DNA of 64,000 nt, from assembly GCA_964016885.1 (NCBI GenBank), contig OZ024740.1:78120001-78184000 (forward strand), read 5' to 3'. The stretch comes from Eledone cirrhosa (lineage: Eukaryota). How positions within the stretch are numbered: position 1 is the stretch's first letter; each line of letters opens with the position of its first letter. The notes beneath the pieces were generated by a model, which was given only the letters and a program-made list of their open reading frames with translations, was not told where the DNA came from and made no database searches. Below are positions 39,609 through 47,844 of the stretch, in pieces. The translations under genes were made by a program, and so were the position numbers.

Positions 39609-40622
39609 TAAATCCATTGGCTCCAGTCATGTGAGCTACTCAATCTCTGACAGATCTATCTATCTATATATATTATATGTGTATTTATGTTTGTATATGT
39701 ATGTATATTTCGTTGATTCATTTTCGTTTCTCTATGAATTTTACTTTCGTTTCAATCCGAAAAATCATAGGACTAACGAGGTTGACGTTTATTTTATTCT
39801 TACTATATTTATTTATTGTTAAATGGAGAAATACATATTAACATTATATATTCAGTACATTTCGTTATTTCCATTTCGGTTTTTAGATTTAACTTTTCCT
39901 TTCAATCCGACACAAGTATATGACATAAACGAACACTGTAATCATGTCAACAGTTCATCTCGGGTGGAAAATGTTATCGTTTTTTGTTGTTTATTGCGGC
40001 AGGTCAACCTTGATCAAGCAGATATGTTATCAAATATCGTCTAGGCATGATCATCTCATTATTTTCAGATATAGTGTATCCACGGCTACATTTTTCAACG
40101 TTGCCTTCCTACAAAAATGAAAAAAATAAAATAAAAAATGGTAGCGTGCTGTAATTTGAGTTACACATAAACTGTTATTTCTAGCAGGTCATGCATTGGC
40201 CTTTTTCTTTTTGTTGTTGTCGTTGTCGACTCTACCGTTATCGGGGTAAGATAGATCCGTCGTTAATTTAACATTTATAGACACCATTGATAAAACATTT
40301 AGCTATACGAATACTTTAGCTTAAACGCTATTGAATCATGTTAGTAAGACCTATATCAATGTATTGAGTAACGATTTGCATCCCTGGTTATCCAGTTTAG
40401 CTATTATATATAGTTTTGTTAAAAGATGATGTATGTAATATATATATATATATATATATATATATATATATATATATATATATATATATTATGCAAAAGT
40501 TTTATTTAAATTGTTGGGATACAACAAGCAAATATTTTTATAACTGATATAAAGCACTCGACAAATATTTGGAGTAGATATACGATATTAATAAATGGAA
40601 ACTATATTTATAAAACCATATT

Positions 40623-40687
40623 TATTTCATTATATATATTTCAAGGATACCAAGTTAAATTATGGTATGCCTTCATCAGACAAAATA
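40623..40687 (-). ncRNA. Type-I hammerhead ribozyme (family H element 40489-40801)
   Basis: Minus strand: tattttgt-CTGATGA-agg-c-atacca(10 nt)tggtat-c-ctt-GAAA-ta(ta)ta-TA-atgaaata. Confidence 0.8.
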
Positions 40688-42701
40688 CAATATATAACAG
40701 TTTTTTATATAGACATATTGACGTACCCTTTTAAAAAAGTGACCGTTGCTTTTGGAGGCCGTCAGGATAACTATCCTGATGGCCTCCAAAAGCAACGGTC
40801 ATACCCTCTATCTCAATTTTACCTTTGAAAAAATGAATATTCTTTAAAGATTCCATTAACATTTTCAATGTCTTTTCTTTATACTTTCACCCGTATGGGA
40901 CATCTCTTTAAAAAAAATAACCCCGCATTTTCTTTTATATATATATATATATATATATATATATATATATATATATATAATATTATGGTGCTAACCGATC
41001 AGGGATGTGCAAACCACCTTTTAGTCGGTTGACTGTGGTGCAGATAAGATGAAGCGCACAACATATACAAGCTGGAGCATTATAAAGTATTGAATAGATT
41101 GAAGGCCATATGCAGTTGTATTAAAGTCTATGTTTATCCATATATATATATTTAATTACAGGTGAGATGCAAGGGGAATTCCAGAGTAACAAGGTTCACC
41201 ATTTAACCCTAATAAAATGGATATATATATATATATATAGAGAGAGAGAGAGAGAGAGAGAGAGAGAGAGAGAGAGAGAGAGAGAGAGAGAGAGAGAGAG
41301 AGAGAGAGAGAGAGTTTAACCAAGGAAATTATATATATATATATATATATATATATATATATAATTTCCTTGGTTAAACTCTATAGTTTAAATACATTAT
41401 ATAGTCACGTACCCAGATAGAACATTTCCATGATAAATCTTGTCTGACAAATCGGACACTATAAAAGCAAATTTCATGAAATCTAGGCTCCAACGTAGCT
41501 CATGTCATCTCTAAAGTTAATCTATCAGTTTATTAGCCTATGTATGTGTGTGTGTGTTTGTGTGTGTGATTTACACATATAAACAAACACGTTTCTTGAG
41601 TGTTTATCAAGTTGTATAAACATGCGGCGAGGTGTATATAATATGAAGCACGAACTGAGTTCGCTACGATTTCTGTATGAACACACACTCGCATTCAGGT
41701 GCGTGTGTTAAACTGAATTGAAAATAACCGCTTTTACGTCAACGATCTAACTATGTATGTACTTTGAAGACCTTTATAATATAGTCTATATCTAGTTTAA
41801 GGTCTGTCCCAAAGCCAAGAGGCTCATCAAGCCGGTGCTTATCGCAGTGTCGTGGCGTCAAGCGACTGAGAGTACGAGACTTCTCCCTGGACAGGACGCC
41901 AGTCCATCGCAAGGTTAAAAACCCGGCTATTGCTGGTACTCATTTTCAGTTAAGTATACGTGAAATGGAATGTTTTGATCAAACACCTAACTCAACCCAG
42001 GAATCGAACCCATGACATTATGATCGTGAGTCCAACATCCTTACCACAGGCCACGCGCCTCCTTATCATATACCGTAGATGATATCAGCCAGCCAGACAG
42101 ACTGACTCACACACACACACACACACACACACACACACACACACACACACACACACACACACACACACACACACACACACACACACACACACACACACAC
42201 ACACACACACACACACACACATATATAATTTCGGAGCCTAAAATTTATGAGGAGAAAGGGTGATGGGTTGATTGCTACAATATTCAGTATATATTAATTG
42301 TAATATATTTCTTTAACCCCGCAAAGATGATTTACAAAACCAGCCCTGTCGAGAATTGAAACCATGGTGTTCAGTAACATAGCATAACCAGGACACTCTA
42401 CTGATTCAACCATCAGAGCAAAAAAGAAAATATATAATTAATGATTTCTATTATAGACACAAGGTCAGTAATTTGGGGAGAGAGCAAAGTCGATTAAATC
42501 GACCCCAGTGTGTTACTGGTACTTTATTCTATCGACCCCGTAAGGATAAAAGGCAAAGCTAACCTCGGCGGGATTTGAACCCAGGGCGTAAAGAGTAGGA
42601 ACATGATAATAGTAATGATAATAAAGCTGAGATCCTTTAACTGTCTGCCAGATAAACAAAAGGTGCTGGGCTGTCAGCTCTGGTCTTATATATCGGGGCG
42701 G

Positions 42702-42753
42702 GGCTTTCCTGATGATTTCCTTCGCATGAAACAGTTCTAGTCCTGTAGAAGCC
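42702..42753 (+). ncRNA. Type-I hammerhead ribozyme (family A element about 42626-42835)
   Basis: ggctttc-CTGATGA-tttccttcgcat-GAAA-cag(ttctagtc)ctg-TA-gaagcc; stem II damaged relative to the 39.6-kb copy. Confidence 0.75.
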
Positions 42754-45173: not shown

Positions 45174-45238
45174 TATTTTATTATACATATTTCAAGGACA
45201 CCAAGTTAAATTATGGTGTGCTTTCATCAGACAAAATA
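45174..45238 (-). ncRNA. Type-I hammerhead ribozyme, left arm of the 45131-45500 palindrome
   Basis: Reverse complement of 45407-45471. Confidence 0.83.
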
Positions 45239-45406
45239 CAATATAGATCAATTTTATAAATAAATATTGACATACCCTTAAAAAATGCAACCATTACTGT
45301 TGGAAGCTCCAGGATACTATCATTATACTATCCGGGAGCTTCCAACAGTAATGGTTGCATTTTTTAAGGGTATGTCAATATTTATTTATAAAATTGATCT
45401 ATATTG

Positions 45407-45471
45407 TATTTTGTCTGATGAAAGCACACCATAATTTAACTTGGTGTCCTTGAAATATGTATAATAAAATA
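45407..45471 (+). ncRNA. Type-I hammerhead ribozyme, right arm (family H element 45131-45589)
   Basis: tattttgt-CTGATGA-aag-c-acacca(10 nt)tggtgt-c-ctt-GAAA-ta(tg)ta-TA-ataaaata; 8-bp stem I; AUA cleavage after 45463. Confidence 0.85.
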
Positions 45472-47844
45472 AATATAGTTTCCATTTGTTAATATCGTAT
45501 GTTTACTCCAAATACTTGTTGAGTGCTTTATATTAGTTATACAATTATTTGCTTGTTGTATCCCAACAATTTAAATAGAACTTTTGCATATATATATGAG
45601 TGTGTTACTTGCTCAATATATTAAAAAATATTTTTATCCCCTCCCCCAGTGTTTTAAATTTCAGCGATATACAGAGGATATGTTAGTTGTAAGTCCACAT
45701 ACCTGAATAATTTAATAAATTTATTTTAATTTCAAAACATGCTATTGGCACTACGTCAACAGATAGATAGCCTTTCGTTATTTTATATCGTACTAGTTCT
45801 AAATAAAAAATATATTTTAGAACGACAGGCAGACAAAAAAATCTAATACAATTATTATAATATAGACTGAAGAATAATTAGCTGAATAGGAAAACAAAAG
45901 ACAGAATCAGTACATGTTGAAGCAGATTGGAAACCACTTGAATAAGCCAGGCGTTCTGTATTTTGAATATGTCATGTGGTAAAGAAAGATTGTCACCAAA
46001 AATTGTTGGTTGTTAGAAAAAAATCTGAAAGAGGGCCTGAAAAAATGGTTCATTAGCTAAGAGACAACTTGGTTGAAGATACAAAAGTAGAGAAAAATCG
46101 TTGGAAGAATCATCAAAGTGTGTGTATATATATATATATAGTGTTTTCTTCGGCTGCATGGCCCTCCTAAAGTATAATAATATATATTTCAACACACGGT
46201 TTCGCATCAAGAATCTTGCAAAAAAAAAATACAAAACGAAGTGTGTGTGTGTATATATATATGTATGTGTGTGTGTGTGTGTGTGTGTGTGTGTGTGTGT
46301 GTGTGTGTTATCATGGGGGGGGGGTGCAGGACGAGTTCTATTTCAATCGGTGACGAAACAGACTTTCTGACAATTTCGTCATTGAATGAAATAGAACAAA
46401 CTATGTAAAAGTCACCTCTCAATGAAATAAAATATCTTCTCTACCTGATGTATTGAGTACCTTATTTTATTTTCCTGTCACTTGTGGTCTATAACGTCAC
46501 AATCCACTATCATTCCACTATATATAGTGTGTGTGTTATGTCTGTGTTTGTATATATATATATATACATACATCTCTAAACAAACATTAGATAACTTAAC
46601 ACTTTTGATCTAACTATTTTAGCTTTTACACCCTGGTGTATATGTCCCCGCCATTACACATACATACATACATTTTTCTATTTTTGCATATTTGTAGCAG
46701 TCCTTGGTCATCCCCTTACGTTAAATCCGGTCATTGGTCACCCCTTTCGTTAAGTCCAGTCATTTGAGATCAGCTTTTAACAGTTCTCCCTATGTTTTCT
46801 TTTGTCTTCTTCCTCAGATTCCTTCTGCTTTCATTACATAAACATTGCATTAAGGAGAGAAGTAATAATAAAAAAAGACATCTGCGTTGTCAGAATCTAA
46901 GGATTATTCATTGTGTTTAGTGAAAAATAACATTGTTTAATAGAAAAGTGTTATAGTTGGCTTGAAGCATTGTGAATTAAGTAAAAAATAGTTTAATAGA
47001 AAAGTGTTAATAGTTGGCTTGAAGCATTGTGAATTAAGAAAAAAAATAATTGCTGTTAGGAGGCCTGGCCGCACCAGTGCGAATGGCATTGTTCAATTCA
47101 ATATTTACAGCTCAGTTTGTAGTGGTTTAATAAAACTAACTTATTTGTTCATGTTTAATATTCTCCCTGTATCATTGGTTGTTTTAGTTTAACCGACATC
47201 AGCCCTGATCGGACAGACCTATGACCAAAGACATTCCAGGTTTGACCATCCCATGTTTTGACTATCTTTTACTACAGTGTCCGATGTGTCCTTTGTTTTT
47301 TCAAATACAGTTATTAGAACGAGATTCTGCTGTTTCTAGCGGGTTGAGCAATAAATGTCGTTAATCATGTTATTAAGATATATATTCCAAAGTATTTAGA
47401 GAATATAATATTTGCATATTCAGGAAAATATCGTAAGATGCTCTGTTGGCGTTTTAATAAAATGAAACACGGTGATAAGTACGTCTCTGAGAATGGACAG
47501 TTTTTCCTTATCAGTCCCAAAACAATCGTGATACAACAATACTATGATCAAAGATAACCCGATTGTGATCCTGCTATATTTATATTGACACATGGTCTAT
47601 CCAAGTAGAATCACCAGATAAAGATAACAAAAGGCAAACAAACACCCAACATCGGCAGGGACGAGCAATTGTACAGTAACTTGTCCGCATAGTTACACTA
47701 TAAAGAAAAGAACAAAGCATCTGACTTATATATAGTAAAGAGTTAGTGCCTGGTGGCTGATCTCACGCCGTTTCCAGTGCGAATAAATAACTCACTTTAA
47801 ACTGGTAACTCCAAATATATATGTGTGTAATATATACACGGGTG

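Follow-up and report, generated by a model that had tools for sequence, protein, structure and literature searches.

Short palindromic hammerhead repeats in Eledone cirrhosa resemble the 3' ends of Penelope-like elements

Why should two diverged copies of a short repeat, each carrying a hammerhead ribozyme, turn back on themselves at the same place, and what kind of element would leave such palindromes behind? The question is raised by a 64-kb window of Eledone cirrhosa DNA (contig OZ024740.1, positions 78,120,001 to 78,184,000; coordinates below are those of the window), a stretch of AT-rich animal DNA with many microsatellites. Both strands were scanned with a descriptor for type I hammerheads (core CUGANGA / GAAA / UH, three helices, helix I open), which returned four matches. 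Three of these, distributed over both strands, belong to the repeat considered here, family H, and show this core and all three helices; the fourth, at 22861, lies in a stretch unrelated to it. BLAST within the window places family H at two loci only, copy A (40490-40801) and copy B (45131-45589). We argue below that these copies are very probably 3' ends, either 5'-truncated or short and non-autonomous, from a Penelope-like element (PLE) of the endonuclease-bearing type, most like those of the Hydra clade.

The hammerhead occupies 40623-40687 on the reverse strand in copy A, and 45174-45238 (reverse strand) and 45407-45471 (forward strand) in the left and right arms of copy B, where the two are identical and the right-arm scissile bond is predicted between 45463 and 45464. 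Stem I comprises 8 bp followed by a bulge and an additional helix, while stem II comprises 9 bp including a C.C mismatch (45425/45448) and is closed by an A-U pair in both copies. Stem III is only 2-3 bp long and its loop is self-complementary. In the folding model the monomer rarely adopts the active fold (probability 1e-4 for B and 3e-7 for A), and two copy A hammerhead molecules cofold via the self-complementary stem III. Rfam gave zero matches at gathering score across the whole window and no hammerhead match to the H copies even at E<=10; its hammerhead models suit minimal PLE forms poorly. MicroRNA matches at E<=10 were discarded, since any hairpin produces them. The ribozymes can be called intact at the level of sequence only, and copies A and B are probably inactive now.

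The hammerheads of A and B differ at 5/65 positions, and all five changes preserve the core and the pairing. A double change (C/T at 45427 with G/A at 45446) turns a C-G pair of stem II into U-A (40667/40648 in copy A) and a single change (A/G at 45423) turns the flanking A-U pair into G-U (at 40671 in copy A), both as the initial annotation had described them; the other two fall in loop III (G/A at 45459) and stem I (A/G at 45466, U-A to U-G). In 200,000 trials per setting, five random changes left the core and pairing intact while including a Watson-Crick double change at a rate of 0.3-1.5%. The hammerhead is less diverged than the 5' part of the element (5/65 versus 18/78, P=0.02), but not significantly so when compared with all flanking parts together (P=0.38).

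To these two copies we can add sequencing reads, four of thirteen listed runs having been aligned to 45317-45592 at 80% likeness. The halves of the stem II double change, 45427 C>T and 45446 G>A, account for 35% and 30% of depth in run X1 and for 68% and 66% in run X5. At the neighbouring pair, 45423 A>G and 45450 T>C stand at 30% and 25% in X1, and one class of reads from run X11 has them at 51% and 7%, so that this pair occurs as A-U, G-U and also G-C, a third state beyond the two seen in the window. In stem I, further listed variants replace G-U by A-U and U-A by U-G; others fall at the free core position 7 and in the bulge. The core is untouched by all 11 hammerhead variants among the 40 of 92 variants listed, which is not significant alone. 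The variant table carries no phase information, and matched frequencies are not independent evidence of pairing because subfamily markers travel together; the independent double changes number two. These sequence comparisons, with double changes at two pairs across the family, support the original proposal that the fold was under selection in the source elements of family H. The covariation would have arisen in active masters rather than in copies A or B. Covariation in PLE hammerhead families is itself reported by Cervera and de la Pena (PMC4209133).

Copy B consists of a tail-less arm (45131-45320, reverse strand) and a tailed arm (45325-45589, forward strand) facing each other across a centre at 45317-45328 whose loop letters are almost private to this copy. 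The arms match at 174/176 aligned bases, giving a duplex of 176 bp, and the right arm carries in addition a 14-nt deletion behind 45468 with respect to the left arm and to family reads. As far as sequence goes, the initial reading of 45131-45500 as a palindrome with one outward-pointing hammerhead on each strand is borne out. The one-sided tail of about 87 nt (45501-45587, forward strand) begins with an ACTC...TTGAGTGCT hairpin motif at 45505-45527 and runs up to (TA)n at 45588-45597, while the tail-less arm adjoins (TA)n at 45102-45133, the end of a long AT-rich array. Copy A has a long arm (40490-40769, reverse strand; 230/261 aligned bases identical to the long arm of B) with the tail at its 3' end, including the hairpin motif ACTC...GAGTGC at 40554-40575 (reverse strand), and this end adjoins a (TA)n target microsatellite at 40440-40489. 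Its short inverted arm of about 30 bp (40770-40801, forward strand) is 29/30 identical to its own long arm and 23/30 to B, and stops short of the A hammerhead.

The claim that A and B fold back at the same place also stands, with near-identical turning points formed by AGGATA (40769), 2 nt and TATCC (40772) in A, and by AGGATA (45316), 12 nt and TATCC (45329) in B, where pairing can extend to a 4-nt loop. One way to share a turning point is by descent from a palindromic master, whether a MITE-like (miniature inverted-repeat transposable element) or a fold-back unit, that was copied whole, which would suit both the shared centre and the high copy number of the family described below. However, arm identity is 97-99% within a copy and 77-88% between copies, with differing loops. 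A palindromic ancestor would give the opposite pattern unless the arms were converted at each locus, and the mirror arm therefore appears to be rebuilt anew at each insertion. Because arms within a copy are much closer than like-sided arms between copies, because the B loop is almost absent from other copies and junctions vary, and because gene conversion would be needed at every locus, we regard a palindromic master as improbable. It is hardly credible that the palindrome is instead a fold-back artefact of assembly or library preparation: no contig spans a whole arm, as an artefact would have it, but the arms differ by two substitutions, the 14-nt deletion and the tail, the outer ends match recurrent family ends, and the same layout recurs in other families.

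What would such an arrangement do to the ribozyme if it were transcribed? The initial annotation envisaged about 170 bp of double-stranded RNA (dsRNA) competing with ribozyme folding. The duplex is there, and palindrome B folds at -281 to -284 kcal/mol, but the model points to abolition and not mere competition, the hammerhead helices having a probability below 1e-12 in read-through B. Since both hammerheads point outwards, transcription entering from either side reaches the antisense arm first, and a single B transcript contains only one sense hammerhead and no dimer partner. Any B read-through would form a long duplex hiding the ribozyme, and according to the model copy A is not blocked in this way. 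A near-perfect duplex of 176 bp at -281 kcal/mol might suggest a host-selected switch, serving as a source of small interfering RNA or an editing substrate. We consider this very unlikely, given that 11 local fold-backs are listed in the window, which makes palindromes look like routine insertion products, that no host exon or transcript is shown, and that the youth of the palindrome accounts for its arms being nearly identical.

Copies of family H are very numerous. Of the 13 listed runs, 10 contain B-arm words; X1, which bears the same organism label as the runs richest in these words, has 3073 matching contigs, and X11 has 15,376 reads on one arm. The runs of other organisms yielded 38 contigs (X5) and 2 contigs (X7, a third organism). 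Behind 45500, the point at which the left arm of B stops, (AT)n follows in 32 X1 contigs, and other family H copies continue to about 45587, so that the family has two alternative 3' ends 87 nt apart. Copy B carries one end of each kind, each against (TA)n, and the end of its tail-less arm (equivalent to 45500) is thus a recurrent family end.

Among the 12 listed joints, ten connect opposite strands and were read as head to head from the lengths of their sides, a reading that is clear for seven or eight and less so for 45464/45469 and 45469/45469. On one side their arms end at 45327, 45341, 45344, 45350, 45360 (twice), 45379, 45383, 45464 and 45469, and on the other at 45448-45572. One of the 12 is explained by the B deletion, which also confounds the pile of arm starts at 45469. 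In copy A, in copy B and at the 45327 joint, one arm end falls inside a span of about 4 nt (45325-45329), whereas in the nine other read junctions the arm ends are found at 45341-45469 and 45448-45572. The proposal that the inversion site is sequence-directed thus holds in part: tabulated over family copies in the four runs, the breakpoint is not fixed, yet there is a shared preferred one, and 45325-45329 makes more sense as a favoured, though not the sole, 5' stop on the template being copied. Depth rises from 336 at the B centre to 72,868 in the next bin in X1; we rejected this step at 45327 as a family-wide 5' end, as it follows from the private loop of B whatever lies upstream elsewhere.

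A further joint is tail to tail (45476/45587) and occurs at high depth (1002 in X1, 17 reads in X11), perhaps marking a subfamily with one copy inserted in the AT-rich stem I region of another. Loose ends at 45433-45437 in X11 and X5, phased by eye, belong to a subfamily with the core CUGAAGA, a flanking G-C pair and the same C.C mismatch, the stem II of which seems about 4 bp longer. Viral and metagenome contigs, scanned by pattern, yielded 4, 0, 14 and 7 loci, none of which match family H beyond the query word, except for a 35-nt AT-rich match (E 0.006) that we rejected as chance.

The unit of about 280 nt, low GC and a type I hammerhead with a short stem III would also suit an animal non-LTR (long terminal repeat) retrozyme, a class of tandem 150-450-nt units with a circular RNA intermediate that has been proposed to derive from PLEs. 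On that account the H copies would be retrozyme monomers, but 0/12 listed joints run head to tail from the 3' end to the 5' start, the ends are found 37 and about 124 nt beyond the site of cleavage instead of forming permuted tandem units, and the window holds no tandem copies; this origin is accordingly a poor candidate.

The assignment to PLEs rests instead on a combination of structural features. As in endonuclease-bearing PLEs, family H has an inverted, 5'-truncated head-to-head copy and an optional tail with two 3' ends, 87 nt apart; as in the Hydra clade, it is inserted in (TA)n and has a hammerhead near its 3' end, in this case one of type I at a distance of about 180 nt from the end with the tail. 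Two of the features given for minimal PLE hammerheads, the long helix II and the small palindromic helix III, are present, and another two, an unpaired base after A9 and the G10.1-C11.1 pair, are absent. Judged by eye, three of the six Hydra consensus sequences in File S7 bear a similar hairpin behind the hammerhead, and the other three end soon after it.

Comparable layouts recur within the window. Among the 14 regions examined for tails, nine palindromes from four families could be scored (B, three of family C, four of family D and one of family E), and in 9/9 the tail is present on one arm only while the other arm stops at or next to TA repeats; within this set the C3 tail is decayed, the tailed arm of D4 is a tail piece only, and the E palindrome lacks a recognisable hammerhead. 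Of the remaining five regions, A could not be scored; three show an extension on one side that lacks the motif, and the last shows no extension. The tails open with ACTC...TTGAGYRCT, found 8 times against 0.02 expected, and the families show no BLAST likeness to each other beyond TA-rich stretches. Family C forms head-to-head hammerhead pairs with a one-sided tail at 8740-8870, 43465-43670 and 58229-58380, two copies having an arm that starts 2 nt before the predicted scissile bond and the left arm at 43.5 kb precisely lacking stem II. Family D forms head-to-head elements at 4890-5080, 38992-39195, 44209-44357 and 52933-53072. In 4/4 copies its tail-less arm has one common starting point, where a stem II-like hairpin has its base, which leaves out the CUGANGA box, and its tailed partner arms start at three places; by analogy with what we suggest for H, family D would have a fixed 5' start with variable partners.

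How might such insertions be made? In the available part of Frangieh 2024 (PMC11167929), an anole PLE protein cuts AT-rich DNA on both strands and extends both, starts at two sites that define the tail, is predicted to be a dimer and does not need hammerhead cleavage in vitro. The parent reverse transcriptase (RT)/GIY-YIG protein of family H could similarly nick (TA)n on both strands, and each end of the cut would then prime one complementary DNA (cDNA), one at the outer (tailed) and one at the inner (tail-less) start site. [quoted passage not shown] Such two-ended priming would yield palindrome B directly, and we find it plausible, if somewhat short of an even chance. A bolder version, which we offer tentatively, is that the mini-palindromes record the PLE integration step itself, with a dimeric enzyme making two cDNAs at a (TA)n double-strand cut and always using one outer and one inner start site; these sites may be set by a hairpin conserved across Hydra-type families, and the junctions may map the 5' ends of template RNAs. 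That some of those 5' ends were produced by hammerhead cleavage, as the arm starts at 45464-45469 and the two family C copies might suggest, is doubtful. The two-ended dimeric model was not found in the few papers that our literature search returned, although the one-sided tail itself is published.

Within the same class of element, the mirror arm could instead arise by self-priming, in which a single cDNA or antisense template folds back at a local hairpin or microhomology; the junction would then be dictated by local sequence, in line with the initial annotation. This has been proposed for head-to-head junction palindromes, described in Arkhipova 2013 (PMC3846280), where the 5' palindromes of 18-38 bp resemble the 30-bp arm of copy A, and three of four family D junctions overlap at a self-complementary GACGGCT/AGCCGTC stem. 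On its own, however, self-priming leaves the split between outer and inner 3' ends in 9/9 cases unexplained, read junctions with arms starting 50-230 nt apart are not simple fold-backs, and the remaining D copy shares this starting point but has no such overlap. We hold it to be a real possibility, albeit one we would not bet on.

Several observations weigh against a PLE origin with two-ended priming and a selected fold. No fragment of a PLE RT or GIY-YIG domain occurs among 104/104 translated stretches of the window (Hydra proteins being recognised by DKT and RWK motifs together with a GIY-YIG at the C terminus that lacks CCHH), so that family H acts structurally like a PLE 3' end but its clade is unproven. 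Family H words are absent from the Craig 2021 supplement in an exact text search, the tail of 87 nt exceeds the published 30-40 nt, and stem II closes with A-U in place of G10.1-C11.1. A symmetric fold-back joint at 45327 is absent from the 12 listed joints, hairpins being under-represented in reads and contigs, and 45429 C>A unpairs a stem II position in many X11 reads. Finally, the short arm of copy A terminates in unique sequence and not at a start site or (TA)n, an ending that fits self-priming better, in the form of a brief fold-back, or else a deletion at a later time.

The rest of the window contains related and unrelated remnants. Pieces of family C lie at 41177-41224, 58914-58949 and 7082-7106, and a further family with a CTGATGA...GAAACAG core and the same tail motif is present as single arms at 27394-27530 and 39477-39610 (reverse strand) and 42700-42835 (forward strand). 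Hammerhead-like cores outside the named families occur at 4566-4625 and 22861-22942 (forward strand). More palindromes adjoin TA repeats (63457-63860, 21933-22206, 22215-22472, 52542-52645, 7736-7845 and 39197-39370; 72-100% complementary), and the one at 22215-22472 is centred on a (TA)n run, that is, tail to tail. Broken RT remnants of the LINE (long interspersed nuclear element) type lie on the reverse strand at 5800-6890, with a PHD-finger match beside the RT (Pfam E 5.5e-07), and at 12990-15020; from their motifs, we take these fragments at 6.2-6.9 kb and 13-15 kb to be ordinary LINE RTs and not PLE. For a possible host exon at about 1 kb, nothing meaningful was matched.

Together these data add a very abundant, probably Hydra-type, hammerhead-bearing PLE end family to an invertebrate genome, and suggest that its ribozyme fold was selected in the source elements. 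The formation of inverted PLE copies and tails and the role of the hammerhead are stated as open questions in PMC11167929 and PMC8557442. With short palindromes numbering in the thousands and belonging to several families of a single genome, two-ended and self-primed synthesis should be distinguishable by counting alone, and these palindromes are also plentiful potential sources of dsRNA.

The comparison with known systems places family H closest to the Hydra-clade PLEs of Craig 2021 (PMC8557442). Hydra families insert in (TA)n and carry 3' hammerheads (Files S1/S2), the type I hammerhead lying about 100-190 nt from the 3' end, with a short stem III, a 1-3-nt loop and, in some cases, stem II closing pairs other than G-C; the stem III forms in File S2 resemble those of family C. 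Unlike these, family H has no open reading frame and a longer stem II (9 bp plus the C.C mismatch), and is unmatched, by exact text search, to any listed family, including the one cephalopod Hydra family. Animal non-LTR retrozymes (PMC7229834; bioRxiv 10.64898/2026.07.22.740005) are likewise short and non-coding with a type I hammerhead and a probable dependence on PLEs, but family H shows no tandem units and an inverted rather than direct arrangement. The metazoan PLE hammerheads of Cervera and de la Pena 2014 (PMC4209133) share its long helix II, small palindromic helix III and compensatory changes, and include opposite-strand pairs 100-700 bp apart in mostly truncated elements; their dimer-type forms with low in vitro activity match the rare monomer and dimer folding of family H, which differs in that, in the register accommodating A and B alike, G10.1-C11.1 and an unpaired base following A9 are lacking. 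The layout itself is already described for PLE insertions: Craig 2021 reports inverted 5'-truncated copies, frequently with the tail at one end only, and in Penelope-13_HM an inverted 5'-truncated copy with an opposite-strand hammerhead, and the PLEs with inverted pseudo-LTRs (pLTRs; Arkhipova 2013, PMC3846280; Craig 2021) have the same head-to-head copy, junction palindrome and tail on one arm. Family H departs from those in its tail (87 versus 30-40 nt), in a whole insertion of <500 bp and in a target duplication that is indiscernible in (TA)n. Our literature search returned no paper on a palindromic non-autonomous octopus Penelope or on head-to-head hairpins; family H appears to be an undescribed member of a described kind.

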